Origin: Armatimonadota bacterium
GTDB lineage: Bacteria; Armatimonadota; JAAZEB01
Reading direction: 5' to 3'
NCBI GenBank assembly: GCA_016199585.1
Contig: JACQGM010000334.1
Span: 1-40,016 of the forward strand
Length of the DNA stretch: 40,016 nt
Shown: in pieces, positions 5,201-37,576 of the stretch
Layout: each line of letters opens with the position of its first letter
Numbering within the stretch: position 1 is the stretch's first letter
Notes under the pieces: model-generated
Told to the model about the DNA's origin: nothing
The model's input: only the letters and a program-made list of their open reading frames with translations
Database searches by the model: none
Made by a program: the position numbers and the translations under genes

Positions 5201-5437
5201 CACGATACCATCGTCGAGAACGTGGGATCCCTACTGCGCGGAACCGCCCACCTGGGGGGCAAGGAGGACCTGGAGATCGAGCAGGTACTTCGCGACCTAT
5301 GGGCCATCAGCAACGCGGATGGCGCCTACATCAACGGGGAGTTCCATGACCTGCCCGACAGCCAACCGATCCGCGATCTCTTTCCGAACGGACGCCCGAG
5401 GCCGGTCGCCGCGCTTTCGGACAGCGACGGCGGCTGA
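2249..5437 (+). CDS. fused restriction endonuclease / N6-adenine DNA methyltransferase (type IIG, Eco57I-like)
   Basis: N-terminal PD...ELK nuclease motif and QAFDY; MTase motif I DFACGSGAFL; motif IV GNPPW; C-terminal TaqI_C-like target-recognition region (PKILLRQ). RBS GAGGTG before ATG 2249. Confidence 0.88.
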   Translation: MRNGAQLSLFGGAGKGHLFDPEMLSRYLREHRTTLLPDLDARARAIRDWVDGISATTAGEATLEHKFVSDILHQVLGYVAHPQLPASLYPKPGTATTGIRGTPDVALGEFTASETRFTAVMELKSPGADLDLPQPGHGNKTPVEQAFDYGRRILGVRWVLVSDMRVIRLYSVESAGEYEEVALGDCVTADGKPTESFTRLHFLLHHDYLVSGHEGSQVALLHDKSAASRLKMRDSFYDAYYNVRADLYNEIRLASSQLPRAATRDDILEATQRLLDRLLFIYYCEDHPQGLVPKATLEDVIAAARRLPGASQTKTYDYMKALFREIDAGSPPGSGVGVYGYNGELFKDHWIIDHISLPDSLHDRRYALEEPDGNTRWIRGVWGLHVYDFWTELSEHLLGHIFEQSLSDLSELGSTEEVPLSEKMRERKRGGVFYTTSILSDFLSAGALTALLDEAAPLEHVPAEELPGRLQERLNRLLALRVADFACGSGAFLVSAYGEMLQEFWRLRSSLDVLVARDRSFDTLLETETQAGLLRHCLFGVDKLPQAVEIAKLALWLRSARKEEKVPDLSGNVVAADSLDVAAVFDRLHMGEAGFDLVIGNPPWGGEMDEEIRARALHILNLPEGSTWDSWELFLLLAIRALREGGRLALVLPDSFFYPEKARTRRGLFEATAVEKVYNLGPDWFGSMVRMGTVVVQARRGASDLNSHLHGLLLTGKLRREAIRAKVPLTQIEAQCSRPVPIRRVVESPTCEVEVFRGARDDAIMRRMTDRSIPLGTLCERGRGEEVNKAGLVWECPSCLGLTTPGTKRKGGGHNDKLCEQCGHRLTEASVATTAFVVEAQPQTGSRAPFIDGDDLNERYRRIVPSKWMLLDPSRWSHKSAGLYKPPKILLRQAGVGILAALDETDARCPQSVYIYRLRDAYLARGYRHEFVLGALLSRTMSYFVLKRFSEADPAKAFAKLTHERLADLPVPDVQLTDAAHRTAHDTIVENVGSLLRGTAHLGGKEDLEIEQVLRDLWAISNADGAYINGEFHDLPDSQPIRDLFPNGRPRPVAALSDSDGG

Positions 5438-5584
5438 TGCCGGCGCGCGGGCTTCGCTCCTGCACGCGGCGCGTGGGGAGACGTCCCCGGCATCTTCCAG
5501 ACACCCGAGCGCGCCGCCGCCCCGGTGTCTCACCCGATCACGGGGTTCGACGCCCTGTTCGGCTCTCTGATGAGGAGGAACCCG

Positions 5585-8500: not shown

Positions 8501-9574
8501 GACCTGGACCTGATCGTGTCGCCGTACGTGGACGTGGGGCACGACCGGGCATGGGTGGCGGACGGCAGGCCGCTGCGCGCGTTCCTGCGCGAGTGGGGGC
8601 ACGATCCCATCCTCTACCGCGACGACGAGGGCCTCTGGCTCTCCCGCTGGATGCACCCCACCCTCCACAACGAGCCGGCCTCCCGCAAGCCGGGTTATGC
8701 CACCGGATGGGAACAGAGCGTCGGGCAGGAGTTCACCGACCTGTACGCGCGCGAGCGGAACCGCTCGGCCGTGGTCATGCACCAGTTCTGGGAGCCGCAG
8801 TACCGCGCCCCGGGAGCCATCTACGACGAGGAGTCGCAGCGATTCCAGTTCACCGACAAGAGTGATTGGCCCCTTCCCGGCAACCGCGGCCAGGTGCTGG
8901 CGCAGCCGGGGGGTGAGAACGCGCGCGAAACCTTCATGCTGGCGCTCGTCGGGGCGGATCCCGACCTCCTGACATACGGGTTCATGGATGTGAACATGAT
9001 GGTCGGCCAGGAGCAGCAGATCCGCGAGTTCGGGCAGGTGCTGCGCGCCCTCCCACGAGAGAAGCTCCTGCCCGCGCTCGGCACCGGGCTGCAGACCAAC
9101 CTCGCCATCCGGGAGCTATCCAGGGATAACCACGGCTTCTTCTACGTCGCCAACCCCGGCTACTGGCCGATGGAGGGCAGCGTCACCCTCTCCGGCACGG
9201 CGGACGTGGTGGACCTGGCCTCGGGCCAACCGGTGGCAACCACGATTCAGGAGGGGAAGAGCGTGGTGCCGGTGAGTCTCAAGCCGTTCGGCGTGGCGGC
9301 GTTCCGCGCCGACGCGGCGGTGAAGGTGGCCGCCTGGAGCAACCGGCCGCTCCCGGAGGCCGAGCTGTCTCACGTGCGGGGGATCCTCGCCGATGGCGAG
9401 CAGCGCCTCGCTCAGGCGGCACCGCCCCTGAAGCCGGAGGACCGCGACTACCTGCAGACGGCCATCGCGGCCGCCAAGGCCGACATGGAGCGGGGGGCCT
9501 ATGCCTGCGCCTGGAGCCGGCTGACGCACTGGCGCTACTGGGGCCTGGCCCGGGAGAGCGTGGCGCATCGGTAG
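5585..9574 (+). CDS. large secreted glycoside-hydrolase-like protein (sugar-binding beta domains plus C-terminal TIM-barrel-like region)
   Basis: RBS GAGGAGG then ATG 5585; signal peptide MRRILVVLLGCVIGLSQASA; galactose-binding-like segment (YLRKEF...LYVNG...ITSYLKPGRN...W..PGFDDSGW); later YSYDDATIARF and WTAWRC motifs typical of GHL10-like hydrolases. Confidence 0.6.
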   Translation: MRRILVVLLGCVIGLSQASAQAPLEPTMRDLFRAQAFLVPATEEELGRDLYHRDWAFDRPDRGNFTYFSPEVADLQVTPEKVLRFRMGAGKAVLGWGNYEGKQPLAARLALWPWHDSVELRVRQSSAPSAWRLHFWSDGERLETPVAATLASADWQTLTFSPLLGPYQSLADVAPDGFDLEVDGEPGSTVEIQSLRITRRLHEGYLRKEFDLPRGRVWRAMAEVGIGGYLYVNGREVPLESSVFRRPALSGPAASRLYRTAPGGTVPVEITSYLKPGRNCAGLYCRQVNDSQLVYFQGRVVMASGETVRVDGDETWRISSRAKDGWSRPGFDDSGWQTPETTHWDHPKKVGLVHYYDFLIHSWLIGSGGGWVGPSIPVWDGRLVLENPYERRLFYDAAKPAVVRVRVPEGLAARRPAIRWTLTRSEEEGEHPVARGEATRFRRSGGSLVYEIDCGRRERGVYAIEVALRSGGAVIEERPREPLVVIGRIPMKEVEGRAYDEGMKLTLEDTIDFTDPNDPHPWVEAAGITGPRSKPAPAVTTPNIVRRNGLRYRETVRREPGHADPPMFSYQFRFQRPGDLYVMALEYPDDADRWIGVSCSTTLTDIFTNSKAAPSVWTGDKYPLTNTVQELRWVYRSGPGPHTIDVLALQVGATAAAARLRIYHVDALPALKVRPPGKDARSFGTYTERTTLYTSFGKTFGPTRQLATLTPLGTEPADFPPLPERLRYLRDCLDACEHYAQYLRFTGQNLLVMGGFQYDNGNSPFTPAAHLPTSRVPRDLREMAVRVFGLNGIDVIAGIEYDGHTCLREEYPVNDGQVALGADTALMVSREGRQSTGRGARRAYSPGWSFLHPRVEALMLSVAEEVAEKFKDQPNVKGVSWTHYLTGEWSPGFSSFQWSSPFLYSYDDATIARFGKDTGIRVPGEPKDPARFQQRHEFLTTGAMKEQWTAWRCRKVHDFFLKVRDRVRARRGDLDLIVSPYVDVGHDRAWVADGRPLRAFLREWGHDPILYRDDEGLWLSRWMHPTLHNEPASRKPGYATGWEQSVGQEFTDLYARERNRSAVVMHQFWEPQYRAPGAIYDEESQRFQFTDKSDWPLPGNRGQVLAQPGGENARETFMLALVGADPDLLTYGFMDVNMMVGQEQQIREFGQVLRALPREKLLPALGTGLQTNLAIRELSRDNHGFFYVANPGYWPMEGSVTLSGTADVVDLASGQPVATTIQEGKSVVPVSLKPFGVAAFRADAAVKVAAWSNRPLPEAELSHVRGILADGEQRLAQAAPPLKPEDRDYLQTAIAAAKADMERGAYACAWSRLTHWRYWGLARESVAHR

Positions 9575-12527: not shown

Positions 12528-13511
12528 TCAGGCGTATTCCCGCGCCACGGCGATGAAGGCGTGGATGTTCTCCGGGGGCGTGTTCCGGCACAGCTCCACC
12601 ATGATCGCCCGCGCGCCGCGGGCGACGGCATCCTCGTAGGCGCGGCGGATGCTCTCCGGCGTCCCCTGCGCCATCTCCGCCACGGTCTTCAGGTTCCAGG
12701 TGAAGGGGAGACCGGGGGCGGCGCCGCGGATATCCTCGATGGTGAGATACTGGTCCTGGCCCGGATCGAACGAAGTGACGCCCAGCTCGAGCAGGAAGGG
12801 GAGGTGCCCGGGGCGGAGGAGCTCGCTGTGGTGGCCGCGCGGCCCCTCGCCGAAAGCGTGGTATATCCGCCGGTAGTAGGGCATCACGAACTCGGGCCAC
12901 ATCGCGGGGGAGATGAGGCCGGCGAAGTCGTCGGCGATCCCGGTGCCCCGGTCGGTCGGGGCGCCATTGAAGCGGCGCACCTGGCGTGAGAAGCGGATGA
13001 TGCTCTCCGTGACCACGTCGAGGAGATGGTGGGCGGCCTGCGGGTTCTCGTAGAGGTCGAGGAAGAAGTCCTGGCCGCGCAGGAGCTTGGCGGTGGTGAT
13101 CGGCCCCTCCAGGCCGGAGCCGAGGGGGACGCGCTGCTCGTCGCCGGCGCGCGCCTGCACCCAGCGCTGCAGCGCCACGAAAGGACGCATCGGCGGGGTG
13201 TCCAGGTAATCCTCGGGGATGGCGAGGGAGAAGACATCTTCGGGCCGGCGCAGGGCGTGGCCGACGACCTGCGGCATGTGGTCCTCGGGGTAGACCAGCT
13301 CCGCCCCGAGCGCGGCGGCGCCGACGTAGGCGGGCACCTCCGCCGAGGGCCGGCCCCCGCCGATGCCGAAGAGATCCCGCAGGCGCCCGCGGCCCACCTC
13401 TTTCGTCCGCCACTGCGTCTCGGGATCCAGGTAGTAGGCGCCGAGCTTCGTGCCGGCGTACTCGGTGGTGACCTCCGCGGGCACCGCCACGCTCCAGCGG
13501 ACTCCTGCCAT
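12528..13511 (-). CDS. uroporphyrinogen decarboxylase (UroD/MtaA-CmuA) family protein
   Basis: GPITTAKLLRG, GIADD...ISP..W.EFV.PYY, GTPESI motifs. Start moved to ATG 13511 (RBS GAGGAG); the ORF-track extension runs through a REP. Confidence 0.82.
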   Translation of the reverse strand: MAGVRWSVAVPAEVTTEYAGTKLGAYYLDPETQWRTKEVGRGRLRDLFGIGGGRPSAEVPAYVGAAALGAELVYPEDHMPQVVGHALRRPEDVFSLAIPEDYLDTPPMRPFVALQRWVQARAGDEQRVPLGSGLEGPITTAKLLRGQDFFLDLYENPQAAHHLLDVVTESIIRFSRQVRRFNGAPTDRGTGIADDFAGLISPAMWPEFVMPYYRRIYHAFGEGPRGHHSELLRPGHLPFLLELGVTSFDPGQDQYLTIEDIRGAAPGLPFTWNLKTVAEMAQGTPESIRRAYEDAVARGARAIMVELCRNTPPENIHAFIAVAREYA

Positions 13512-13600
13512 TCCGTCTCTCCTCTGCCACGGAACCTCGCCGGCCAAGCAGGATGGCGGATTGAGAGGGCAGATCGCACACCCCCGTGACGAAACCGGGC

Positions 13601-13679
13601 CGTGTAGGGGCGGACCGCGTGTCCACCCGGCACCGCGAGTGCGCCACACCCGGGCGGACACGCGGTCCGCCCCTACACG
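13601..13679. repeat. REP doublet (GTAG family), inverted pair
   Basis: CGTGTAGGGGCGGACCGCGTGTCCACCC ... GGGCGGACACGCGGTCCGCCCCTACACG; same family as 12391-12465. Confidence 0.85.
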
Positions 13680-13708
13680 AAAGCTGCCCCCTCCCTCCAC
13701 CGACCTGC

Positions 13709-21140: not shown

Positions 21141-22187
21141 ATGAGCAGGAGAGATGGGACCACAGCAGCCGCGCTGCCGTGGCTGGCGGAAGTCCAGACC
21201 CCGCCGGCGTCTCTGCCGGCAGACGCGCCGCGCCTGAGCCCGTTGATGGTGGACGGCGCGGGTCGGCCCATCGCCACCGTCGCCGCCTGGGAGCGGCGGC
21301 GGGCCGAGCTGCGCGAGCAATGGCTCGACTACATGGGGCGGTTCCCGGAAGAGCGCGGCCCAGTGAGCCTGACTGTCCTGGAAGAGGACCGCGACACGGG
21401 TTGCGTGCGCCAGCTCGTGCAGTACGAGTCGGAGCCCGGCCTCCCCGTGGAGGGGTACCTTCTCTTCCCCGAGAACCCGGAAGGCTCCGTGCCGGGAGTG
21501 GTGGTGCTGCACTCGACCATCACCTACAGCATCCGGCAGCCGGCCGGGCTGGAGGGGCCGGAATCGCTCTTCTTCGCGCTGAAGCTGGCGCAGCGAGGCT
21601 ACGCCGCCTTCGCGCCCCGGTGCTTCAGCTTCCAGTACCGAGAGCCGGGCTCTCGCGACGTGATGGCGTGCGTTCACTGGCTGAAAGCGCGGCGCCCGGA
21701 CGTGCGCGGCATGGCGAAGCTCCTCCACGACGCCCGGCGCGCCGTGGACGTCCTCGAGAGCCTCCCCATCGTAGACCGCGAGCGCATCGGGGCGATCGGG
21801 CACTCCCTCGGCGGCAAGGAGGCGCTCTACCTGGCGGCGTTCGACGAGCGGGTGAAGGCGACGGTGAGCAGCGAGGGCGGCGTGGGCCTTGCATTCTGCA
21901 ACTGGCACGCGCCGTGGTACCTCGGGGAGGAGATCCGTCGGGAAGGCTTCCCGATGGAGAATCACCAGGTGCTGGCGCTCGTGGCGCCGCGCGCGTTCCT
22001 GCTCCTGGGCGGCAACCACTCCGACGGCGACCGGAGCTGGCCGTTCATCGAGGCGGTGCAGCCGGTCTACCGCCTCTACGGGGCAGAGGAGCGCATCGGC
22101 CTGCTGAACCACCGGCAGGGGCACGCCGTGCCGCCGGAAGCGGGAGAGCGCGCCTATGCCTGGCTGGATCACTTCCTGGGGGAGTGA
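21141..22187 (+). CDS. dienelactone hydrolase / alpha-beta hydrolase family protein
   Basis: GHSLGG nucleophile motif, AAFDERV, LVAPRAFL, C-terminal GH; RBS GGAGGAG before ATG 21141. Confidence 0.85.
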   Translation: MSRRDGTTAAALPWLAEVQTPPASLPADAPRLSPLMVDGAGRPIATVAAWERRRAELREQWLDYMGRFPEERGPVSLTVLEEDRDTGCVRQLVQYESEPGLPVEGYLLFPENPEGSVPGVVVLHSTITYSIRQPAGLEGPESLFFALKLAQRGYAAFAPRCFSFQYREPGSRDVMACVHWLKARRPDVRGMAKLLHDARRAVDVLESLPIVDRERIGAIGHSLGGKEALYLAAFDERVKATVSSEGGVGLAFCNWHAPWYLGEEIRREGFPMENHQVLALVAPRAFLLLGGNHSDGDRSWPFIEAVQPVYRLYGAEERIGLLNHRQGHAVPPEAGERAYAWLDHFLGE

Positions 22188-22296
22188 GGGTCCTTATGGG
22201 TCTTGCCGACCAAAGCCGGTAGTCGTCGTTCCGGCGCGGGGCGGCGTGTCCGCCGTAACCCCGTGCTCGCCGCGGCGGCGCCAGATGGAGCGCCCA

Positions 22297-23319
22297 ATGA
22301 ACTCACGAGAGCGCGTGCAGGCGGTTCTCCGGCACCGGGTTCCCGACTCGGTGCCACACGGCCTGTACGACGTCACGATTGAGAATTACAACGACACCAC
22401 GCTGGAGTTCTTCCAGAAGATGACCGGGAAGCACCCGCGCGACTGCTTTCGGCACGACATTCGGAACGTGAACATGAAGGCGATCCCGCGCGCTCCCGAT
22501 CCTGGGCCGCGCGACCGCGCGCCGGACGGCCGGTCCTGGCGAGCCGTGATGTCCGAAGTCGAGTCCGTGGACGACCTGCGGAGGACCGGGTTCTACGAGG
22601 CATGGGTACCCACACCCTGGCGGGTGGAGGATGTCAAGCCCCAGATTGACGCGCTGCACGCCGACGGTTACGCCTGCTTCGGGGGCATCCAGGGCACGAT
22701 CGGCATGACTGTCTGGCGCTTGAGGGGACAGTCGCAGTTCCTGATGGACCTGGCCGACCGGCCGGCGTGGCTCGAGGTCCTGCTGGACTGGGTTACGGAG
22801 GCGACGATCGCGGACATGTGCGTCTCCGCCCGGGCACACCCCGACATCCACTGTTTGTGGGACGACTTCGGAACGCAGCGGGGTCTGCTGTTCTCCCCAC
22901 AGACCTTCCAGGAGCTCTTCGTGCCGCGATACAAGCGGGTCGTGGACGCGATCAAGCGCGTGGATCCAGAGGGGGCGGTCTTTTACCATTGCTGCGGCGA
23001 CGCGACGCCGATCATCCCCGCCTTGATCGAGGCGGGCATTGACATCCTCAACCCCCTCCAGCCGGAAGCGATGGACCCCGTCGCCGTGAAGCGGGAGTTC
23101 GGGAAGGACCTGGTGCTCTGGGGCGGGCTCGGCGTGCAGAGCACCCTATCGAGGGGCACGCCGCAGGACGTGGACGACGCGGTCGGACGCCTCATGGAGA
23201 CGGTCGGGAAGGACGGCGGGTACATCCTGACCCCGGCGCACATGATCAACCCCGACATCCCGTGGGAGAACATCGTCGCCTTCTTCGAGGCGGCGGAGAG
23301 GTACGGGAACTACGGGTAA
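22297..23319 (+). CDS. uroporphyrinogen decarboxylase (UroD/MtaA-CmuA) family protein
   Basis: MNSRERV start, DDFGTQRGLLFSP, FYHCCG, LNPLQPEAMDP, GGYILTPAH. Confidence 0.9.
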   Translation: MNSRERVQAVLRHRVPDSVPHGLYDVTIENYNDTTLEFFQKMTGKHPRDCFRHDIRNVNMKAIPRAPDPGPRDRAPDGRSWRAVMSEVESVDDLRRTGFYEAWVPTPWRVEDVKPQIDALHADGYACFGGIQGTIGMTVWRLRGQSQFLMDLADRPAWLEVLLDWVTEATIADMCVSARAHPDIHCLWDDFGTQRGLLFSPQTFQELFVPRYKRVVDAIKRVDPEGAVFYHCCGDATPIIPALIEAGIDILNPLQPEAMDPVAVKREFGKDLVLWGGLGVQSTLSRGTPQDVDDAVGRLMETVGKDGGYILTPAHMINPDIPWENIVAFFEAAERYGNYG

Positions 23320-25624: not shown

Positions 25625-26500
25625 CTACTCGCCCAGCAGGCTCATCAGGGCGCGGGCGGCGGCGGTCAGGTGCTTGCGTCGGTGGTAGGCCAGGCCAAAC
25701 TGCCGCTGGATACGCACTCCCTCGATGGTCACTTCCTTCAAGACGCCCCGGGCCAGCTCGTCGGCAACCGTGAGGCGAGAGAGGATCCCGATGCCCAGCC
25801 CGGCCCGGATCGCCTGCTTGATTGCTTCGGTGCATCCCAGTTCCATCGCCACCCGGTAGGAGATACCCGCGCTTCTCAGGGAGCTCTCGGTAATGGCCCG
25901 GGTGCTGGATCCCGGCTCCCGGAGGATGAGCGACTCCGCGGCGAGGTCGTCGCCCCGAACCGCTTCGCGGTCGGCGAAAGGGTGGCCCGGCCTCACAACC
26001 AGCACCAGCGTGTCGGTCGCCAGCGGCCGCACTACGAGCTCGGGCGGGGCGCACGGCTCGCCCAGCACTCCGAAGTCGCTCTCGTTGGCAAGCAGCCAGC
26101 GCACGACCTGCTCGGTGTCTGCGATGCGCAGGAAGAGATCCACCCCCGGGTACCGCTGCTTGAGCCGTCCCAAGACGGGCGGCAGAACGAACGTGCCGGG
26201 CGTGGTGCTCGCGGCCACGACTACCCGCCCGCGCTCCATCCCCCGGAACTCCTCCATCGCCGACCGGGCTTCCGATGCGGCCATCAGCAGGACGTCGGCG
26301 TGACTGAGGAGGATGCGACCTCCCTCGGTCAGGTAGACCTTCCGCCCCATCTGCTCCAGTAGCTCCACGCCGATCTGTCGCTCCAGTTCCTTCACGTGCG
26401 CCGATACGCCGGGCTGACTGATGCGCAGTTCCTCGGCAGCGCGCGAGTAGCTGCCTCGGCGCGCCACCGCCTGGAACACGCGCAGTTGCTGCAGCGTCAT
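25625..26500 (-). CDS. LysR-family transcriptional regulator (CysL / selenium-metabolism-associated type)
   Basis: MTLQQLRVF...SYSRAAEEL.ISQPGVS HTH; ASTTPG..LP, REPGSSTR, EAIKQAI..GLG; divergent from selD. Confidence 0.92.
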   Translation of the reverse strand: MTLQQLRVFQAVARRGSYSRAAEELRISQPGVSAHVKELERQIGVELLEQMGRKVYLTEGGRILLSHADVLLMAASEARSAMEEFRGMERGRVVVAASTTPGTFVLPPVLGRLKQRYPGVDLFLRIADTEQVVRWLLANESDFGVLGEPCAPPELVVRPLATDTLVLVVRPGHPFADREAVRGDDLAAESLILREPGSSTRAITESSLRSAGISYRVAMELGCTEAIKQAIRAGLGIGILSRLTVADELARGVLKEVTIEGVRIQRQFGLAYHRRKHLTAAARALMSLLGE

Positions 26501-26520
26501 GGGTAATTCATTACCTTTCA

Positions 26521-26537
26521 CTTATACTAAAGATAAG
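26521..26537. promoter_or_regulatory. LysR binding box (T-N11-A dyad)
   Basis: CTTAT-ACTAAAG-ATAAG perfect dyad between lysR and selD; an extended -10 (TGcTACAGT, 26569-26577) follows toward selD. Confidence 0.7.
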
Positions 26538-26703
26538 AAACTGGTATTGGATAATTATACTCCATCTGTGCTACAGTGGGAAGTACAAGGAACGAGAGAT
26601 CGCAGGTGGGCGACGGACGAGCATCGTCCCTCCGCACGGGCGTGGACCGCGCGGGGGCCGCGCTTCGTGTCGGTCCACAGATAGTAAGAGAAAGGGTGAA
26701 GCG

Positions 26704-27768
26704 ATGACAAGCGAAGGGATTCGGCTCACGACGCTTTCGCACGGCGCCGGGTGAGCGTGCAAACTGAGGCCGGCGGACCTCGCGCAGGTACTGCGCCATC
26801 TGCCACCCATCAGCGACCCGGATGTTCTGGTCGGCGCTGCCACCGCCGATGACGCCGCCGTGTATCGTATCAGCGATGATCTGGCACTCGTGTTCACCGT
26901 GGACTACTTCACGCCCGTGGTGGACGATCCTTTTCTGTTCGGCGCTATCGCGGCGGCCAATGCCTTGAGCGACGTTTACGCCATGGGTGGCCGCCCGGTC
27001 CTCGCCCTCAACCTCGCGGGCTTCCCCGCGCGCGACCTGCCGCTTTCGGTCCTGGAGGACATCCTCCGGGGTGGCGCCGAAAAAGCTGTGGAAGCGGGCG
27101 TCGCCATCGTGGGTGGGCACACCATTGATGATGCCGAGCCCAAGTACGGCATGGCGGTGATCGGGTTTGTGCGCCCGGATCACGTGCTTGCCAACGTGGG
27201 CGCCCGGTCCGGCGATGCGTTGGTGCTGACCAAGCCGTTGGGAACAGGGATCGTGACCACCGCCGTGAAGCGCGGCGCGGCCCCCGCGGCAGCGGCGGAT
27301 GCGGCTGTCCGGACGATGGCCATGCTCAACCGTTCGGCGGCGGAGGCGCTGGCGCCCTTCACCATCCACGCATGCACCGATATCACCGGCTTCGGCCTCA
27401 TCGGGCACCTCTGCGAGATGGTGTCCGGCAGCGCCGTGGGGGCAGAGGTCTACGCCGGGGCCGTGCCCCTCCTTCCCGACGTGGTGCCGCTGGCTGAGAG
27501 CGGCATGGTGCCAGGCGGCACCTACGCGAACCACCAGCACTTCGGCACGCACGTTACCTGGGGGGCGGGAGTTGATGAGACCACGCAACTCATCTTGTGC
27601 GATGCCCAGACTTCTGGAGGGCTCCTGGTCGCCTTGCCGGAAGCGGAGGCGCCCGATCTGGTCGCTGCGCTGGAACGAGCCGGAACGCTTGCGGCCGTGC
27701 GGATCGGGCGGATCCTCGCTGCCCCGGAGGGAGCGATCCGGGTACGCAGCGCGAGGGATGAAGCGTGA
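26704..27768 (+). CDS. selD: selenide, water dikinase (selenophosphate synthetase), selenocysteine-containing
   Basis: ATG 26704 reads MTSEGIRLTTLSHGAG-UGA-ACKLRPADLAQVL, in frame with the ORF-track 26860..27768 protein (TVDYFTPVVDDP, AANALSDVYAMGG, GGHT, TDITGFGL, DAQTSGGLL). UGA at 26752-26754 occupies the catalytic Cys/Sec position (U-x-x-K). Confidence 0.96.
26765..26781 (+). other. putative bacterial SECIS hairpin
   Basis: GAGGCC-GGC-GGACCTC stem-loop; the G-initiated apical loop starts 17 nt after the UGA. Confidence 0.6.
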
Positions 27769-28535
27769 GTGGGGTGTGTGTCGCCCTGGGCTTCGTGGGC
27801 GGCGTCATCGCGGGGACGCTCGGGATCGGGGGCGGGATCATCATGGCGCCACTCCTGCTCTATGCGCCGCCGGTGCTGGGTGCAGGGCATCTCGATATGC
27901 GCGTGGTGGCCGGGCTGACCATGGTGCAGAGCCTGGCGGCCGCATCCTCGGGGGCTGTCGCCCACCGCCGCCAGGGGAGGGTTCAGCTCTCGCTGGTGGG
28001 ATGGCTCGGCGGCGCGGCCGGCGCGGGCGCTCTCGCCGGGGGCATCCTGTCCCACGCCGTGAGTAGTCGGACGCTGGCGATGTTGTTCGCCTCCCTGGCG
28101 CTGCTGGCGGTGGCATTGATGCTGCTGCCAGCGCCGCCGGCTGCGGACGAAGAGCACGTCCGTTTCAGCAAGGCGATCGGGATTCCCATGATGCTCGGCG
28201 TCGGCCTGCTGGGGGGCACGGTAGGCCAGAGCGGCGCCTTCCTCATCGTTCCGCTGATGTTGCGGGTCCTGCGAGTGCCGCTGCGCGCCACGGTGGGAAA
28301 CACCCTGGGCATCGTGTTCCTGACCGCCCTGGCAGGCGTGGCGGGGAGACTGGCGACGATGCAGATCGCCTGGCTGCCGGCGCTCGCGCTCGTGGCGGGC
28401 GCGTTTCCGGGCGCGCAACTGGGGGCCCGGCTGAGCGCGCGCATCCGAGGCCGCCATCTGCACGCGGCTTTGAGCCTGTTGATCGCGGCGACGGCGGCCA
28501 GGATGTGGTGGGACATTCTCGTTGGTCGCCTGTAG
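27765..28535 (+). CDS. TauE/SafE (TSUP) family membrane transporter
   Basis: Hydrophobic; GTLGIGGGII.AP and GTVGQSGAFLIVP repeats; overlaps the selD stop (GTGA). Confidence 0.9.
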   Translation: MSGVCVALGFVGGVIAGTLGIGGGIIMAPLLLYAPPVLGAGHLDMRVVAGLTMVQSLAAASSGAVAHRRQGRVQLSLVGWLGGAAGAGALAGGILSHAVSSRTLAMLFASLALLAVALMLLPAPPAADEEHVRFSKAIGIPMMLGVGLLGGTVGQSGAFLIVPLMLRVLRVPLRATVGNTLGIVFLTALAGVAGRLATMQIAWLPALALVAGAFPGAQLGARLSARIRGRHLHAALSLLIAATAARMWWDILVGRL

Positions 28536-28637: not shown

Positions 28638-28667
28638 TTGACACGCCCGGCGCCCCTGTGCTATACT
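28638..28667 (+). promoter_or_regulatory. sigma70-type promoter
   Basis: TTGACA-N18-TATACT with TG extension. Confidence 0.75.
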
Positions 28668-28828: not shown

Positions 28829-29926
28829 ATGCCCAACGTTTTCGGCAGAGAGTTCACCCGGGAGGAGCTGGAGCAACGCACCGGACGCATGGACCAGGTC
28901 TGCGGCGTCCGAGCCGCCGTGCTCACCGACGGGCGCGCCGCCGGGGTTCGCGTCGCCGACGTCTGGACCGGCAGCGGCCTGGAGTTCACCGTCCTCCTCG
29001 ACCGCGCGATGGACATTGGCGCGGCGCGCTGGCAAGGGAAGTCCCTCTGCTGGCGCTCGTCGGTCGGCGATGTCCACCCGGCTTACTTCGAGCCGGATGG
29101 CATCGGCTGGCTGCGCAGCTTCGGCGGCGACCTGATCACCACCTGCGGGCTCACCCAGGCAGGGGCGGCGGGTGTGGACGAGGGCCGGGCGCTCGGGCTG
29201 CACGGCCGCATCTCGAACCTGCCGGCGGAGAACGTCCACCTGGATGCGGCGTGGGATGATGACGGCCACTACGTCGTCTGGGCCGCGGGGAGGGTGCGCC
29301 AGGCGAGTGTCTTCGGCGAGAACGTGGTCCTCACCCGGCGGGTGTTCACCCAACTCGGGGAGAACCGCGTCTGGATCCACGACTCGGTGCGCAACGAAGG
29401 CTACGAGCGCGCCGAGCACATGCTGCTCTATCACGTCAACCTCGGCTTCCCGGTGGTGGACGACGGCACCGTCCTCGTCGCGCCCAGCCGGGCGGTGACT
29501 CCCCGCGACGCCGAGGCCGAGGAGGGAAAGGAGGCCTACGCCGAGTTTCGCGGGCCGCGCCGGGGGTATCGGGAGAAGGTCTACTACCACGAGATGCGCC
29601 CGGAGAGCGACGGACTGGTGCCGGTGGCGCTCGTGAATCGCCATGCGAACGCGGGCGCCGGTTTTGGCGTCTATCTGTTATACGGGCATCGAGAGCTGCC
29701 GCACTTCGTCGAATGGAAGATGCTGGGGCAGGGAACCTACGTGGTGGGTCTGGAGCCCGCAAACTGCCTGGTGGAGGGTCGGGCGAAGGAACGCGCCGAG
29801 GGCAGGCTGCAGTTTCTGGAGCCGGGGGAACAAAGGAATTACCGGCTTGAGATCGGCGTGCTGCCCTCACTGCTGGAGATCGCCGCCTTCGAGGAGCGCG
29901 TGGGAGCGATAGCGCGTAAGGAGTGA
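28829..29926 (+). CDS. aldose 1-epimerase-like protein (DUF4432)
   Basis: DRAMDIG, WLRSFGG.L.TTCG, LHGRISN.PA, LYHVNLGFP, YVVGLEPAN motifs. Confidence 0.88.
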   Translation: MPNVFGREFTREELEQRTGRMDQVCGVRAAVLTDGRAAGVRVADVWTGSGLEFTVLLDRAMDIGAARWQGKSLCWRSSVGDVHPAYFEPDGIGWLRSFGGDLITTCGLTQAGAAGVDEGRALGLHGRISNLPAENVHLDAAWDDDGHYVVWAAGRVRQASVFGENVVLTRRVFTQLGENRVWIHDSVRNEGYERAEHMLLYHVNLGFPVVDDGTVLVAPSRAVTPRDAEAEEGKEAYAEFRGPRRGYREKVYYHEMRPESDGLVPVALVNRHANAGAGFGVYLLYGHRELPHFVEWKMLGQGTYVVGLEPANCLVEGRAKERAEGRLQFLEPGEQRNYRLEIGVLPSLLEIAAFEERVGAIARKE

Positions 29927-31450: not shown

Positions 31451-32647
31451 ATGAGCCGCCGCTGGATGCGCTATGGTCTCCCCGCCCTGCTGGTGGCGGC
31501 CGGGGCGGGGCTGTGGTGGGGGGACGTGCGGGTGCCGCCGGCGTTCTGGGTGCAGGCGATGCGAGACCCGAAGGACCCCCGCACGGTGGTGCTGCGCTAC
31601 CCGGGGACGGTGGACGTGGAGGTGACGCCGGATGGGGAGCGACTGCAGCGCCAAAGGCCGATCCGCTGCTCCATGGTACAGGGGTACGTTCAGCGCTGGT
31701 GCCTCTCTCCTGACGGACGAACGCTGATATGTGCTTCAGAGGACTGGTCCGCCTACGCCGCCGGCAGGAGTGCCAGTCCCGGCAGTCTGGCCTTCTGGGA
31801 AACGCGCACGGGGAAGGTTATCCGGCGCGTGCCCGTGTCCCAGGAGTTTGAGGCGTTGACCTGTTCTCCGAATAACCGGTTGCTTGCAGGGAAGACGACT
31901 GACACCCGTTCATCACGCGCGCACGACCGGGTGTGCATCTGGGACCTCGGAAGCGGTCGAATCGTTCGCGAGCTGCCAGTCGCGGGGCTTGGCACGCACG
32001 CATTCTCGAATGATAGCGGCGTAGTTGCTGTTGAAGGCGAAGGACCGTCTGTGACGCTCTATGACACCACGACCTGGCGTCCTCGCGCTGTGCTGAGAGA
32101 CGCTTGGGGGCAGTCGGGAATGCTCGTTCGTCGGCGCTCCTACGTCTGCGGCATCACCTTCTCCCCGAATGGGGGCCGGATGGCTGTCGCCACGTGTCGG
32201 GCATCCGGGATCGACGCTTGGGAGGGAGCCGTGACGGTATGGGATATGGCGACCGGCCGTCTCGTCTCCAGCACCATCCAGTGCCCGGTTGACCCATACA
32301 CCGAAGCCACGTTCCTCGGCGAAGACACACTCGCGGTAGGTGGGCGGCGATTCAGCGTGGCTCGGCCGGATACAGCGCCCGAGGACCTGATCGCCGCGCC
32401 GGGCAGACAACTCATCGACTTCCTCTCCGTCCCCGAGGGCCTCGCCATGTACCACGTTGACGGGCAGAGCGACACTCTGGAGGTATGGAACGTGCGGACA
32501 AAGAAGCGACAGCATCGCTGGCGCGGTGCGGCGTGCTACACGGAAGTAGGGTTCGGCGGCTGGAGAGCATACCCGGTTCCAGGGGCGCTGCTGGTGGTGG
32601 AGGAACCCCGGCACGACAGCTTCATCACGGTGCGCCGCCTGGAGTAG
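31451..32647 (+). CDS. membrane-anchored WD40/beta-propeller protein
   Basis: N-terminal hydrophobic segment; repeated SPDG/SPNN/FSND/FSPNG and IWD/VWD/VWN blades. Confidence 0.75.
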   Translation: MSRRWMRYGLPALLVAAGAGLWWGDVRVPPAFWVQAMRDPKDPRTVVLRYPGTVDVEVTPDGERLQRQRPIRCSMVQGYVQRWCLSPDGRTLICASEDWSAYAAGRSASPGSLAFWETRTGKVIRRVPVSQEFEALTCSPNNRLLAGKTTDTRSSRAHDRVCIWDLGSGRIVRELPVAGLGTHAFSNDSGVVAVEGEGPSVTLYDTTTWRPRAVLRDAWGQSGMLVRRRSYVCGITFSPNGGRMAVATCRASGIDAWEGAVTVWDMATGRLVSSTIQCPVDPYTEATFLGEDTLAVGGRRFSVARPDTAPEDLIAAPGRQLIDFLSVPEGLAMYHVDGQSDTLEVWNVRTKKRQHRWRGAACYTEVGFGGWRAYPVPGALLVVEEPRHDSFITVRRLE

Positions 32648-32784
32648 CCGCCGCACAGCAGGCCCCACCCGCCCGCCAGGAACCCACCCCCACCAGGGCG
32701 AAGAAGACTCCGGGACGGGGCCCGGACCGGGAGCGCCGCCGGCGTTCTCTCGCGGCTTCTGGCGCCGTCCTTGTGGAGACAGTG

Positions 32785-33882
32785 ATGACCCAGACCAGCA
32801 GCCTTGTGAGCACCCCCATCACCCCCGACTGGCAGAGCCTGGTGCGCTGCATCCGGCGCGAGGGCACCCCCCGGCGGGTCCACCATATCGAGCTCCTCCT
32901 GGACGCCGAGATCCAGACCGCCGTCTGCGAGCGCTTCGGGCTCCTCGCCGGCCTCGATCCTTTTGATCCCTTCTATGCCCAGAAGCGCCTGGTGGCCGTG
33001 CAGCGCTTCCTCGGCTACGACTACGTGCGCTGCGGGCTGGAGGGGATGGCCTGGCCCCTCAATCGCGCCGAGGTCGAGGACACCGCCGTCCACAAGCGCG
33101 CCGCCGGGCGCAGCTTCGTGGACGAGCACCGCGGGCCGATCACCACCCGGGAGGAGTTCGAGCGCTACCCCTGGCCCGACGCCGAGACCGCCAGCACCCG
33201 CTCGCTGGAGTGGTACTCCGAGAACCTCCCCGAGGGGATGTGCATCATCGCCAGCGGCGGGTTCGCCCACTTCGCCGAGCACCTCGCCTGGCTCCCCGGT
33301 TACGAGACCCTCTGCTACCTCCTCTACGACCAGCGCGACCTGGTGAAGGCGATCGCCGACCGGCTGACCGACATCTTCGAGACCTCCCTCCGGCGCATGC
33401 TCCAGTTCGAGCGCGCGAAGATCATCTGGGGCAGCGACGATATGGGCTTCCGCTCCGGCACGCTCATCAGCCCCGACGACCTGCGCGAGTTCGTGCTCCC
33501 GGGCCACAAGCTGATGGCGCAGATGGCGCACGCCGCCGGCCGCCCCTACCTGCTCCACTCCTGCGGCAACCTCAGCGCGATCATGGACGACCTGCTCGAC
33601 GACGTGGGCATTGATGCCAAGCACTCCTTCGAGGACACGATCGAGGACGTGCGCGAGCTGAAGGGGAGCTACGGGCGCCGGATCGCTCTCCTGGGCGGCA
33701 TTGACGTGGACTTCCTCTGCCGCGCCGACGAGGCCGCCATCCGCCGCCGCGTCCGCGACACCCTGGAGAAGTGCCATCCCGGCGGAGGCTACTGCCTCGG
33801 CACCGGCAACAGCGTCGCCAACTACATCCCCGTCGAGAACTACCTGACGATGCTGGACGAAGGCCGGCGGTTCACTGGGTGA
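32785..33882 (+). CDS. uroporphyrinogen decarboxylase (UroD/MtaA-CmuA) family protein
   Basis: SDDMGFRSGTLISP, LLHSCGN, HSFED, LGGIDVD, GGYCLGTGNS; ATG 32785 with RBS GGAG. Confidence 0.9.
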   Translation: MTQTSSLVSTPITPDWQSLVRCIRREGTPRRVHHIELLLDAEIQTAVCERFGLLAGLDPFDPFYAQKRLVAVQRFLGYDYVRCGLEGMAWPLNRAEVEDTAVHKRAAGRSFVDEHRGPITTREEFERYPWPDAETASTRSLEWYSENLPEGMCIIASGGFAHFAEHLAWLPGYETLCYLLYDQRDLVKAIADRLTDIFETSLRRMLQFERAKIIWGSDDMGFRSGTLISPDDLREFVLPGHKLMAQMAHAAGRPYLLHSCGNLSAIMDDLLDDVGIDAKHSFEDTIEDVRELKGSYGRRIALLGGIDVDFLCRADEAAIRRRVRDTLEKCHPGGGYCLGTGNSVANYIPVENYLTMLDEGRRFTG

Positions 33883-33937: not shown

Positions 33938-34131
33938 TCACCACAGAGGGCGACAGAGGCTGGGACTCACAGGGTTTCATCTTCAGCGTGCGGATGAGGG
34001 GGCGGTGTCCGGCTTCGTCATCGCGCGCGTGATCGTACCCGCGATCAGTGGCGGAGCGGCAGGCTGGCGGCTGCGAACCCGACAGATGCTCTCGTGCGCC
34101 CCTCAGTGTTCCTCAGAGTCCTCTGTGGTGA
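33938..34131. repeat. inverted-repeat-bounded intergenic element with degenerate ~9-bp subrepeats
   Basis: TCACCACAGAGG (33938-33949) and CCTCTGTGGTGA (34120-34131) form a perfect 12-bp inverted repeat; ACAGAGG/CCTCAG subrepeats lie inside each end. Confidence 0.6.
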
Positions 34132-34220
34132 GAGGCCTTTCCGGGCCGGGTTGGACGTGCGATTCGCGTTCATTCGCGGTTGAGCGCGGTTGCGGAATAG
34201 AGGAGGGTTTGCAGGCTACC

Positions 34221-35786
34221 ATGACAGATGAGGATGCCGGACGGGATGCGTTGTTGGAGAGCCTCCACAACCTGGAGGCGCGTGCCCTGTCGGCATTGGA
34301 GAAGAGCACCCGGGCGGACGAGCGCGCCCTCGTGGAGGCGACCGGCCTCCACGAGGCGCAGGTGCGTACCGCGATGGGCTGGCTGTTGAGTAAGAACCTG
34401 GTCGAGGTGGCGCGCGAGGAGACGCGCCGCGAGGTGCGCCTCACCGACGCCGGGCGCGACACCGTGGCGCGCGGCACCCCCGAGGAGCGCATCTGGAAGC
34501 GCCTCCGCTCGGCCGGGCCGACGCAGATGGACGCGCTGATGGAAGCGTCCGGCGTCGAGAAGGAGGATCGGAGCGGTGCCGTCGGCACGCTGCGCGCCGC
34601 CAAGGCGATCACTATCGGCCCCGGCGGCATCGTCGCGGCCCCCGACGGCCCGGAGCCGGAGGCGATCGCGCGTGACCGCGGCCTCCTGCGCGCCGCCCAG
34701 GAGCGCGAGCCGGCGCCCCTGGAGAGCTTTGCCGCCGCGGAGCAGCAGCGCCTGCAGGAGATGGCAGGCGGCAAGCGCAAGGGGAAGGGCCTGGTCTCCA
34801 TTGACCTGCGCCGCGAGCGCACGTTCGTGCTGACCCCGGAGGGACAGGCGATCGCGCGCCTTCTCGCCGAGCGCGGCTTCCGCGAGGAGGTCTCGCAGCT
34901 CACGCCGGAGATGCTGCAGGACGGCTCGTGGCGCAACGTGCGCTTCCGCTCCTACTACATCGGGCTGCAGCCCCCGCGCAGTCTGGCCGGGAAGAAAAAC
35001 TCCTACGGGCAGTTCCTCTCCTTCGTGCGCAGCAAGCTGCTGGCGATGGGCTTCACCGAGATGCGCGGCTCCATGGTCGAGAACGAGTTCTGGGACATGG
35101 ACGCCCTCTACATGCCCCAGTTCCACCCGGCGCGCAACGTCCACGATGTCTACTACGTGAAGGAGCCGGAGTACTCCGACCCGGTGGCCGAGCCCTTCGC
35201 CTCGCGCGTGGCGGCCGCGCACGAGAACGGCGGCGACACCGGCTCGCGCGGCTGGGAGTACCGCTTCGATCCCCTGCGCAGCCGGCGGCTGATCCTGCGC
35301 TCGCAGGGCACGGCGCTCTCGGCGCGCGCGCTCGCCTCCGGCCCGAAGGTGCCGGGGAAGTACTTCGCCATCGCCCGCTGCTTCCGCTACGACCAGGTGG
35401 ATGCCACCCACGCCAGCGACTTCTTCCAGGTGGAGGGGATCGTCCTGGCGGAGAAGGTGAACTTCCGCACGCTGCTAGGCCTGCTGAAGCTGTTCGCCGT
35501 GGAGATCGCCCGCGCCACCGAGGTCGAGTTCGCGCCGGCCTATTTCCCGTTCACCGAGCCCTCGGTGGAGATGCACGCCCGGCACCCAAGCCTGGGCTGG
35601 ATGGAGCTGGGCGGCGCCGGCCTCTTCCGCCCGGAGGTGAGAGAGCCGCTCGGCGTGAATGTGCCGGTCATCGCCTGGGGCCTGGGCATCGACCGCATGG
35701 CGATGCTCGCCCTCGGCCTCCACGACATTCGCGATCTCTTCTCCGCGGACCTGGACCTGGTGCGGACGCGGAAGTCGGTGCTATAG
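34221..35786 (+). CDS. pheS: phenylalanine--tRNA ligase alpha subunit, archaeal/eukaryotic type
   Basis: 521 aa with long N-terminal helical extension; FWDMDALYMPQFHPAR, FRYDQVDATH..DFFQVEG, YFPFTEPS, ELGGAGLFRPE, AWGLGIDR. Confidence 0.96.
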   Translation: MTDEDAGRDALLESLHNLEARALSALEKSTRADERALVEATGLHEAQVRTAMGWLLSKNLVEVAREETRREVRLTDAGRDTVARGTPEERIWKRLRSAGPTQMDALMEASGVEKEDRSGAVGTLRAAKAITIGPGGIVAAPDGPEPEAIARDRGLLRAAQEREPAPLESFAAAEQQRLQEMAGGKRKGKGLVSIDLRRERTFVLTPEGQAIARLLAERGFREEVSQLTPEMLQDGSWRNVRFRSYYIGLQPPRSLAGKKNSYGQFLSFVRSKLLAMGFTEMRGSMVENEFWDMDALYMPQFHPARNVHDVYYVKEPEYSDPVAEPFASRVAAAHENGGDTGSRGWEYRFDPLRSRRLILRSQGTALSARALASGPKVPGKYFAIARCFRYDQVDATHASDFFQVEGIVLAEKVNFRTLLGLLKLFAVEIARATEVEFAPAYFPFTEPSVEMHARHPSLGWMELGGAGLFRPEVREPLGVNVPVIAWGLGIDRMAMLALGLHDIRDLFSADLDLVRTRKSVL

Positions 35787-35821: not shown

Positions 35822-37576
35822 ATGGACACCGAACGCTTCCGACTGCGTGCGCTGCTGGCGGTGCTGCTGTGCCTCTCAGCGCTGGGACCGGTGTGGGGTG
35901 CGGCGGGTGGGGCACACCTGGTGGTGCTGCACCTCAACGACGTGCATGGGCAACTGGAGCCGGGGGTGACGGTCACCGGCGAGAGCGTGGGTGGGATGGC
36001 GCGGGTGGCAACGCTGGTGCGGCAGGTGCGGGCGGAGAACCCCGACCGGGTGCTGTTGCTGCACGCGGGTGACATCCTCTCGCGCGGCGATGCCCTCACG
36101 GTCCACGATGGCGGGGCCCTAAGCTTCCGGCTGCTGGAGATGATCGGCGTGGATGCCCTGGTGCCCGGGAACGGCGAGTTCTACTTCGGCCTGGACAACC
36201 TGATGCATCTGACCCGCCATGCGCGCGTCCCCGTGCTGTTCTCGAACCTGGCGCGCCGCTCCGATGGCAAGCGGCCCTTTGGGTCGTTCGTCGTCAAGCG
36301 CGTGGGTGGGGTGACGGTCGGGATCCTCGGGCTTGGATTCATCCGTGTGGAGCATCCCGCCTCGCGCACGCTGGAACTCCGCGACGCCATCGCGGAAGCC
36401 CGGCAGCGGGTGCCCGAGCTGCGCCCGCGCGTGGATCTGCTCATCGCGCTGACGCACATCGGCTTCGGCGCCGACCAGAAGCTGGCCGCCGAGGTGCCGG
36501 AGCTGGACCTGGTGGTGGGTGGGCACAGCCACACCCGCCTGCTGAAGCCACGGCGCGTGCCCCGGACGGGTGCCCCCGGCGAGGTGGTGGTGGTGCAGGC
36601 CGGCGAACTCACCCGCGACCTGGGACGGGTGGATATTGACCTGGAGCCGGACGGTTCGCGGATGCGCGTCGCCCGCATCGAGGCGAAGCCGCTGCCGGTG
36701 AACGCCGAGGTGCCGGAGGACCCGCGTATTGCCGCGGCCCTGAAGAAGGCCCGCGCGCCCATGGAGCGGGTGATCTTCGAGTCGGAGGTGGCCCTGGCCA
36801 ACCCGAAGGAGGGGGAGATCCCCGCGGGGCAATTCGTCGCCGAGGTGGTACGCCGTGAAGCCGGCGCGGACCTGGCGCTGCTGGACCGGGGCTCCGTGGC
36901 CGGCGATATCCGCCCCGGCAAGAACACCTGGGCAGACATCTATCGCATCCACCCCTGGCGCAACCGCGTGCTGCTGCTCACCAGCACCGGCGCGCAGGTG
37001 GTCGAGGCACTGGCGAAGCTGGATGCTCACTCCGGCGGGTGCATGTTCGGCAAGGAAAAGGGTGCCGTGCGCGACATGGTGGTTGGCGGCCGAGCCCTTG
37101 AGCCCGAGAAGCACTACCGTCTGGCGGTGGACCATTACCTCTACGGCACGATACCGATGCTACAGGCGATCCCGAGCCGCGATACGGGTCAGCGGATCGA
37201 TACACTCCTGGTGCGCCACCTGAAGCGCGTGAAGGTGCTGCGCACGGCGCCCACGGGCGGGCGTAAGATGTATGCAAACACGCAGCGTGGGCCGAGACGG
37301 AGCGCGGCCCCTACGAAGACACTGGGGCAGGGTCGCTGCTCCGTCCGCGACCACAACGCGCATTGCCAGCGGAGGACTCCCGCCCAACCCGGCCCGGCAG
37401 GATTCGCGCGAGCCAGGACAGAACCCGGGGCCTGGCAGGTCACGGGAGTAAGAGGGCGGATCCCGCCCCCGTCCTTGGCGCGGGCGCGTCTCGATCCGGG
37501 GGTAGCTCCCGGTCCGAGGCACGGCGTTCTGCGTCCTGGTGGGGTGCAGGACCGCGGTGGGAGTAGGTGGCAATGA
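35822..37576 (+). CDS. secreted metallophosphatase / 5'-nucleotidase family protein (last ~100 codons probably spurious read-through)
   Basis: Signal peptide; HLNDVHG, AGD, GNGEF, LTHIG, GGHSH; 5'-nucleotidase C domain ends near 37250. Confidence 0.85.
   Translation: MDTERFRLRALLAVLLCLSALGPVWGAAGGAHLVVLHLNDVHGQLEPGVTVTGESVGGMARVATLVRQVRAENPDRVLLLHAGDILSRGDALTVHDGGALSFRLLEMIGVDALVPGNGEFYFGLDNLMHLTRHARVPVLFSNLARRSDGKRPFGSFVVKRVGGVTVGILGLGFIRVEHPASRTLELRDAIAEARQRVPELRPRVDLLIALTHIGFGADQKLAAEVPELDLVVGGHSHTRLLKPRRVPRTGAPGEVVVVQAGELTRDLGRVDIDLEPDGSRMRVARIEAKPLPVNAEVPEDPRIAAALKKARAPMERVIFESEVALANPKEGEIPAGQFVAEVVRREAGADLALLDRGSVAGDIRPGKNTWADIYRIHPWRNRVLLLTSTGAQVVEALAKLDAHSGGCMFGKEKGAVRDMVVGGRALEPEKHYRLAVDHYLYGTIPMLQAIPSRDTGQRIDTLLVRHLKRVKVLRTAPTGGRKMYANTQRGPRRSAAPTKTLGQGRCSVRDHNAHCQRRTPAQPGPAGFARARTEPGAWQVTGVRGRIPPPSLARARLDPGVAPGPRHGVLRPGGVQDRGGSRWQ
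37289..37352. repeat. degenerate REP doublet
   Basis: GGGCCGAGACGGAGCGCGGCCCCTACG and GCAGGGTCGCTGCTCCGTCCGCGACC; similar to units at 15491-15517 and 20923-20949. Confidence 0.6.

Follow-up and report, generated by a model that had tools for sequence, protein, structure and literature searches.

A selD-linked clade of TSUP permeases and a candidate selenium assimilation unit in an Armatimonadota bacterium

What does a permease named after sulfite exporters do directly behind the gene for selenophosphate synthetase, and how far might the selenocysteine (Sec) codon of the one gene control the other? The question is raised by positions 25625–28535 of a 40,016 nt stretch of DNA from an Armatimonadota bacterium (assembly GCA_016199585.1, contig JACQGM010000334.1), referred to below as the window. 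The window is one entire contig of an assembly of 449 contigs (5.38 Mb, 69% G+C, 80% complete, contamination 3.4%), and the region in question is occupied by three genes, lysR, selD and tauE. A preliminary description had placed lysR and selD divergently around an AT-rich spacer with a perfect CTTAT-N7-ATAAG dyad and had reported a 4 nt GTGA overlap between selD and tauE; all of these features are present, at the positions given in Table 1. With moderate confidence the three genes are read here as a selenium assimilation unit, in which the permease, a member of a selD-linked TSUP clade, would carry inorganic selenium to SelD, with a leaky effect of the selD UGA codon on tauE.

The tauE product matches PF01925 at 142.7 bits (cut-off 32.6) over residues 6–247 of 256. 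It contains both G-rich motifs of the family, GIGGGIIMAP at residues 20–29 and GTVGQSGAFLIVP at residues 151–163. The structure model (predicted local distance difference test 93.7) is all-helical with ten helical elements. Its best match among solved folds, and the sole Foldseek match, is BacA (TM 0.58, E 0.046); the PDB holds no sequence relative of TauE. The position of the protein within its family was examined in a tree of 99 TauE rows, built by a quick IQ-TREE method under LG+G4, from which high-scoring segment pairs of <150 query residues, open reading frames (ORFs) of <200 aa and ORFs running off the locus were left out. A branch with a Shimodaira–Hasegawa-like approximate likelihood ratio test (SH-aLRT) value of 100 parts 78 rows from 21 generic TauE rows, the tool warning of long branches that meet in the generic part. 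The 78-row clade consists of 59 members adjacent to selD, 9 that are assessable and lack it and 10 that are not assessable. None of the generic rows is selD-adjacent; among them are the TauE genes from the phylum of the window and a further TauE encoded in its assembly.

The clade is also set apart by polar residues seldom found in the generic rows: T52 and Q200, which never vary, and Q55, Q155 and R174, which are almost invariant. According to the labels of the source records its members belong to the Bacillota, Chloroflexota, Actinomycetota, Nitrospirota, Nitrospinota, Thermodesulfobacteriota, Myxococcota, Acidobacteriota and Pseudomonadota. The names given to the 120 relatives listed are only TauE/SafE ('sulfite exporter'), YfcA, hypothetical and probable membrane transporter, and NCBIfam has no model specific to the selD-linked TauE clade. 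The clade is a distinct, widespread and unnamed subfamily of TSUP proteins. A Sec codon inside TauE itself was considered and rejected, as the '*' in five rows of the alignment represents the genes' own stop codons.

The neighbourhood of the permease was surveyed with the window TauE as query and one genome per species, selD, lysR and tauE being located by tblastn in the 80 best loci. Adjacency of selD and tauE recurs across phyla. The two genes adjoin on the same strand in 58 of the 80 loci; 52 of these pairs have the order selD–tauE (41 with TGA at codon 17, 8 with Cys and 3 with the N-terminus off the contig) and 6, all with TGA, the order tauE–selD. Among the 22 loci without selD, 8 are not fully assessable and 5 contain a distant TauE (<32% identity; archaeal and one from the Acidobacteriota). 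Restricting the count to fully assessable loci of 32% identity or more leaves 55, of which 46 have the pair. A metagenome replicate of 80 loci similarly gives the pair in 54, and in 33 of the 34 that are fully assessable, with 1.2 kb or more on each side (29 selD–tauE, of which 20 Sec and 9 Cys, and 4 tauE–selD). Cys-type selD–tauE pairs occur at 8 genome and 11 metagenome loci. Cultured bacteria with the pair include Desulfosporosinus fructosivorans (L008) and Desulfopila aestuarii (L048/L052). The tauE–selD order accounts for 6/58 genome and 7/54 metagenome pairs and is also found in the nearest relatives of the window TauE (loci L199, L200, L202, L203, L011, L022, L027 and L013).

Starting from selD gives a different picture. 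No permease lies within 3 kb in any of 80 selD-seeded loci (31 Sec, 49 Cys; one search pattern favoured Cys forms); the linkage does not extend to selD genes in general. The permease also lacks a close orthologue in 60 genomes of the window's phylum, where the best match is 30% identical (E 3.3e-18). The suggestion in the preliminary description that TauE is a candidate selenium transporter is well founded, because the clade is tied to selD across phyla.

The selD gene itself is of the selenocysteine type. Its product matches TIGR00476 at 394.5 bits (cut-off 125) and NF002098 at 375.3 bits (cut-off 299), and both the AIRS (PF00586) and AIRS_C (PF02769) domains are matched. The in-frame TGA lies within GAGUACK, which fits the SelD N-terminal pattern G-x-G-(U/C)-x-x-K with Sec at the catalytic position. 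This column is occupied by TGA in 80 other fetched loci and by Cys in all the rest. The UGA is followed by a hairpin resembling a selenocysteine insertion sequence (SECIS). Across 81 aligned Sec-type selD sequences 72.0% of the hairpin cells are paired, a value lowered by some 30 Desulfobulbales-like rows that carry a different, earlier hairpin, compared with 57.2% in shuffles (0/500 reach the observed value) and 35–54% when the pairing partner is slid as a control. Double-sided changes are seen in five of the six pairs.

Two hairpin positions after the UGA occur among Sec-type selD genes (alignment columns 24–41 versus 37–51). The window shares the GCGCAG-GUN-CUGCGC type with Nitrospirota, Chloroflexota and Bacillota, and the earlier type, GUCCGAC-GGAUCU-GUCGGAC, occurs in the Desulfobulbales-like loci. 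As the two types are mixed in the 81-row set, the named hairpin was counted in place of an RNAalifold consensus; RNAalifold gives no consensus structure for all 81 slices. Folded alone, the 60 nt past the UGA are no better than shuffles (z = -0.39), and the same is true of the selD leader at 26575–26710 (z = -0.55). Rfam gives no family match to the window at gathering scores, and none to 26480–26860 at E up to 1. The same assembly encodes tRNA-Sec, selA (561.9 bits) and selB (347.3 bits); a search of this 80%-complete assembly for the tRNA 2-selenouridine synthase family gave no match. The covarying hairpin after the TGA, together with selA, selB and tRNA-Sec in the genome, indicates that selD is a working selenoprotein gene and not a broken one.

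A second selD–tauE copy is present in the same assembly, at the end of contig C107 (11419–12341). Here a third selD, cut by the contig end, is represented by its final 53 codons, and the TauE encoded after it shares 75% identity with that of the window; the GTGA overlap is the same, and GGGAGG precedes tauE at the place where the window has GAGGGA. The remaining gene (C46:13283–14311) is a second Sec-type selD, 60% identical, with a tRNA gene after it and without a permease. The three selD genes may be paralogues or may reflect a second strain in the bin.

The divergent gene encodes a LysR-family protein with HTH_1 (PF00126, 77.6 bits) and LysR_substrate (PF03466, 195.5 bits) domains. The ORF list gives lysR as 25625–26521 (-) with a GTG start, and this in-frame GTG at 26521 would add seven residues. 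The ATG at 26500 is the likelier start because residue 1 of the 291-aa product then aligns to position 1 of NF040786. This model, LysR_Sec_metab, is the top NCBIfam match (residues 1–289 aligned to model positions 1–294). The window protein resembles LysR_Se (HrsM, NF040786) in its two domains, in its best-scoring family and in adjoining a Sec-pathway gene, from which it is divergently transcribed, but differs in scoring 238.8 bits against a curated 250. It is accordingly filed as LysR_Se-like, its nearest family, and not as a family member.

While selD–tauE pairing is widespread, the full lysR–selD–tauE arrangement put forward in the preliminary description is much less so. A LysR gene, counted if its product scored >100 bits against the window LysR, lies near tauE in 13/80 genome and 5/80 metagenome loci. 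NF040786 is the top match for all 13 of the genome proteins; nine exceed the 250-bit cut-off and four lie at 238.1 to 249.2. At L012 and L041 tauE and an NF040786-type LysR gene diverge without an intact selD in between, and at L013 the gene order is lysR, tauE, selD. These arrangements point to LysR control of the permease. Locus L041 (2933–4822) contains a LysR_Se member (260.4 bits), a gene for a DedA/VTT-domain membrane protein, a 37-residue selD remnant (62% identical) and the permease, and looks like a decayed or rearranged unit with an extra membrane protein. In Nitrospirota and Acidobacteriota loci an ArsR-type regulator precedes the pair in place of LysR, with a rhodanese fusion in L068. 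The gammaproteobacterial Cys-type loci have a thioredoxin-like gene after tauE, and DsrE-like and rhodanese genes recur near the permease at other loci. The neighbours of the permease elsewhere are of sulfur or selenium trafficking types (DsrE-like, rhodanese, thioredoxin-like) with ArsR or LysR regulators.

The lysR–selD spacer is 203 nt long (26501–26703), and its first 80 nt have 35% G+C compared with 69% for the genome. As in a classical LysR divergent promoter, a dyad containing T-N11-A lies between the divergent genes. With one mismatch allowed, the window has no match to the pattern besides this sequence, CTTATACTAAAGATAAG; the expected count of the exact pattern is 0.05. Matches elsewhere come mostly from one Nitrospirota lineage with ArsR, not LysR; L013, which has LysR, carries CTTAT-N7-ATAAA. 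A hexamer enrichment scan of the upstream regions returned only A/T runs and Shine-Dalgarno motifs, with no dyad hexamer prominent. In a search of same-phylum genomes, metagenomes and the protein collection for nearer relatives on which promoter footprinting could be based, none exceeds 56% TauE identity except the C107 copy, whose promoter lies beyond the contig end. Binding of LysR at the dyad is a reasonable guess. The spacer also contains a promoter-like site for lysR. A scan found no plus-strand site above threshold, and TATACT is the best available candidate -10 for selD; the hexamer 17 nt upstream of it, ATAAGA (26533–26538), overlaps the dyad. At three Desulfobulbaceae loci with LysR (L024, L061 and L081) the region upstream of selD has a common promoter-like stretch, TTGACAG...TATAAGAATA. 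These loci also share an inverted repeat, TATAAG ... CTTATA, with arms approximately 35–40 nt apart around a repeated ATTGATAGAAA; the half-site resembles the window dyad and the spacing differs.

Part of this arrangement is already known. LysR-like genes beside selA, selB or selD were described by Lin et al. (2015; PMC5322559), where selenophosphate sensing was proposed, and Sec-type SelD is likewise known. The same paper assigns this LysR subfamily a characteristic conserved proline in the substrate-binding domain. The preliminary description had stated that LysR and TSUP genes near selD have both been noted before. For LysR this is borne out in print (PMC5322559) and in NCBIfam. For TSUP it was not confirmed in the literature searched: the words 'TauE', 'DUF81', 'TSUP' and 'permease' each have 0 occurrences in the main text of PMC5322559, where the link to a TSUP gene seen in the window unit is thus absent. 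The search found no paper linking the TauE/TSUP clade to selD or selenium, with subscription journals and supplements outside its scope, so that an earlier mention is possible. The selD-linked TSUP clade may be the new element of the unit. The main candidate selenium transporter is YedE, a membrane protein proposed as a selenium carrier because of the genes around it and because it co-occurs with SelD (PMC5322559). The argument for YedE/YedF (TIGR04112) is of the same kind as that for the window permease, but the two belong to unrelated fold families, YeeE/YedE and TSUP. TIGR04112 is matched above its cut-off by 0 proteins in the 80%-complete assembly, in 0/5 permease genomes and in 1/5 comparison genomes, numbers too few to show replacement; 0/14 control genomes pass it.

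The window TauE shares its Pfam family and both G-rich motifs with TauE/SafE and the other TSUP permeases (TC 2.A.102). It differs in its separate clade, in its own T52, Q55, Q155, R174 and Q200 and in its linkage to selD. The substrates of characterised TSUP members are sulfite, sulfoacetate and toluene sulfonate. The clade-specific residues and the linkage to selD suggest a substrate other than sulfite or organosulfonates.

A possible mechanism can be outlined from the gene content and layout. A LysR-type regulator near the selenium-associated LysR family is encoded divergently from a probable two-gene operon, selD–tauE, the first gene of which specifies a selenocysteine-containing selenophosphate synthetase. 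The permease would most likely move an inorganic selenium species, reduced or oxidised, through the membrane and so feed SelD, with selenite and hydrogen selenide or a related form as the candidates. Both genes are probably co-transcribed, with translation of tauE following directly on that of selD. Under selenium shortage ribosomes would halt at the UGA of codon 17 and less tauE product would likely be made, through lost reinitiation and transcription polarity. Some selenium dependence of tauE is therefore likely in this layout, as a by-product of the arrangement and not as its reason. The effect would be leaky because tauE has its own ribosome-binding site. A broader proposal, advanced only tentatively, is that the clade is a dedicated selenium importer of anaerobes and microaerophiles in at least eight phyla, replacing YedE or acting beside it, with its synthesis fed forward via the UGA and LysR. 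Here the Sec UGA of selD (by lost reinitiation and Rho-dependent polarity) would combine with a LysR that senses a selenium metabolite. If true, this layout would act as a switch that reinforces itself, so that selenium is used only when present.

Several observations weigh against a selenium assimilation unit. Among 151 genomes drawn evenly from one phylum 141 have selD and the pair is present in only 7, so most Sec users appear to manage without the permease. In view of this, of the 0/80 selD-seeded loci and of the lack of an own-phylum orthologue, the permease is best regarded as an accessory that keeps to selD where it is present. Nine assessable clade members have no selD nearby, and the clade alignment shows no conserved Cys or Sec. 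The window LysR lies approximately 11 bits under the NF040786 cut-off of 250. A perfect inverted repeat of this 5+7+5 form turns up in about 29% of block shuffles of the spacer, which makes the dyad alone weak evidence. Conservation of the box, which the preliminary description had put forward as a check, is not clear: with up to one mismatch the dyad is found in 4/55 regions upstream of the pair (expected 0.82, P = 0.010), and in 2/47 in the metagenome replicate (expected 0.92, P = 0.26). Finally, characterised TauE/SafE proteins are described as sulfite or sulfoacetate exporters, and export or detoxification by the permease is a live alternative. An exporter would clear surplus selenite or selenide, or else sulfite or sulfide as sulfur analogues, from the cytoplasm, giving protection or better discrimination by SelD between selenium and sulfur. 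The name of the Pfam family is consistent with this, as are the DsrE-like, rhodanese and thioredoxin-like neighbours, which handle reactive sulfur or selenium; a greater amount of protein at plentiful selenium, via LysR or the UGA, would also suit an exporter. However, a tight and ancient pairing with a selenide-consuming enzyme is more easily explained by supply, and the polar signature of the clade is unlike that of generic TauE proteins, so export is considered unlikely. It is highly improbable that the permease is simply a generic sulfonate or sulfite TSUP protein whose position after selD has no functional meaning. The unrelated flanking genes (GH95 and DUF4432) would agree with such a view, as would the poor best match in the 60 same-phylum genomes, but it is already contradicted by the surveys, with adjacency in 58/80 and 54/80 loci from many phyla and in 33/34 fully assessable metagenome loci. 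The split from generic TauE at SH-aLRT 100 and the second copy with the same overlap also argue against it, and identities of 35–53% argue against copies of one mobile element.

The preliminary description went beyond a leaky effect and proposed a two-layer gate, in which tauE is made only by ribosomes that have passed the Sec UGA, in addition to transcriptional control by LysR. Under such a reading, selection would have shaped the layout to this end. The GTGA overlap in both the window and the C107 copy would favour coupling, and close spacing is common: junctions of Sec-type selD with tauE have a spacer of ≤10 nt in 45/72 cases compared with 5/19 for the Cys type (Fisher p = 0.008), a difference that the test overstates since the Cys-type loci are approximately one gammaproteobacterial group and the rows are not phylogenetically independent. 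An AGGAGG-like motif of at least 4 letters is present at only 5/52 junction rows. Polarity is feasible because a Rho homologue is present in the assembly (465.8 bits, E 1.5e-139, under the 509 cut-off). There is also a precedent in fdhF_Sec of Treponema primitia, where coupling to translation places the transcript beyond the UGA under selenium control (Matson et al., 2013; PMC3892789). There, as proposed for the window, an early Sec UGA makes downstream RNA and protein dependent on selenium, but the effect described lies within one gene, whereas in the window it would extend to a second cistron. Against the gate, the tauE GTG is preceded at 6 nt by a GAGGGA of its own and the junction folds in an ordinary manner with no special structure (z = -0.15), so independent initiation is possible. 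The permease also follows Cys-type selD genes at the 8 genome and 11 metagenome loci, and the order is reversed in 6/58 and 7/54 pairs, in 4 of the 8 pairs of the even one-phylum sample and in the nearest relatives of the window TauE. In that sample TGA is found in 149/150 of the selD matches listed, whether tauE is near or not; Sec-type selD is the norm in these taxa, and its prevalence in the pairs reflects the taxa. Moreover, a strict gate on an importer would shut the cell out at low selenium. The tight junctions and the fdhF precedent thus survive from the proposal, but gating by UGA read-through is not a conserved design; with the comparative support mixed, the two-layer gate stays hypothetical and is regarded as doubtful.

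The selenium assimilation reading bears on a wider problem. The specific uptake of trace selenium by bacteria is still an open question, and according to a 2022 review (PMC9312934) a high-affinity system for selenium transport has yet to be identified. The selD-linked clade of many phyla, a second permease family and one unrelated to YedE, offers a concrete gene to test. The annotation of the clade, with its present names, could be improved, and the layout is a simple natural setting in which to ask to what extent a Sec codon governs the genes that follow it.

Table 1. Features of the lysR–selD–tauE locus in the window, followed by coordinates of regulator and neighbour genes at related loci.
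Feature	Position	Strand	Details
LysR-family regulator gene, 291 aa	25625..26500	-	ATG 26500; HTH_1 and LysR_substrate
Perfect dyad CTTAT-N7-ATAAG, CTTATACTAAAGATAAG	26521..26537		Contains T-N11-A; 21–37 nt upstream of lysR ATG; candidate LysR site
Promoter-like site for lysR	26554..26582	-	TTCCCA, 17 nt, TATAAT; 10/12 consensus positions; consensus match only
Candidate -10 for selD, TATACT (best available)	26556..26561	+	Predicted from the sequence
selD, selenide water dikinase, selenocysteine type, 354 residues	26704..27768	+	Family profiles and in-frame TGA
Sole in-frame TGA of selD, codon 17, read as Sec	26752..26754	+	SHGAGUACK
SECIS-like hairpin GCGCAG-GUA-CUGCGC	26782..26796	+	Starts 27 nt past UGA; covariation
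GAGGGA, Shine-Dalgarno-like, for tauE	27753..27758	+	6 nt before GTG, inside selD end
GTGA overlap, tauE start on selD stop	27765..27768	+	selD TGA 27766–27768, tauE GTG 27765–27767
tauE, TauE/TSUP permease gene, 256 aa, selD-linked clade	27765..28535	+	PF01925, tree
Promoter-like site of DUF4432 gene (28829–29926)	28638..28667	+	TTGACA, 18 nt, TATACT; 11/12 consensus positions
Regulator/neighbour coordinates	L033:2501-2842, L036:2486-2827, L068:2161-2850		ArsR-type regulator or thioredoxin-like gene beside the pair
Neighbour coordinates	L010:4781-5296, L019:4743-5255, L029:4697-5149		ArsR-type regulator or thioredoxin-like gene beside the pair

The flanks of the unit are unrelated to it, with a GH95 glycosidase gene upstream and a DUF4432 gene (361.2 bits) downstream. 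The strong promoter-like site of the latter marks the end of the lysR–selD–tauE unit. Within the DUF4432 frame ARAGORN reports a 'tRNA-???' with a two-base anticodon (28881–28969), which is probably a false call. Three genes like those of the uroporphyrinogen decarboxylase (URO-D) family are present in the window (12528–13700 (-), 22156–23319 (+) and 32485–33882 (+)), where they sit among glycosidase and esterase genes. At 2243–5437 a 1064-residue fusion joins an Eco57I/MmeI-like methylase to a TaqI_C specificity domain; the 1349-residue ORF that follows it (5525–9574) matches nothing in Pfam or NCBIfam. A phenylalanine-tRNA ligase alpha subunit with approximately 85 extra N-terminal residues is encoded at 34005–35786 (NF003210/PRK04172, 546.8 bits). 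Finally, the metallophosphoesterase at 35822–37576 shows a weak likeness to SoxB (123.7 bits) and to a 'UshA-like (seleno)protein' (104.2 bits), both below cut-off.

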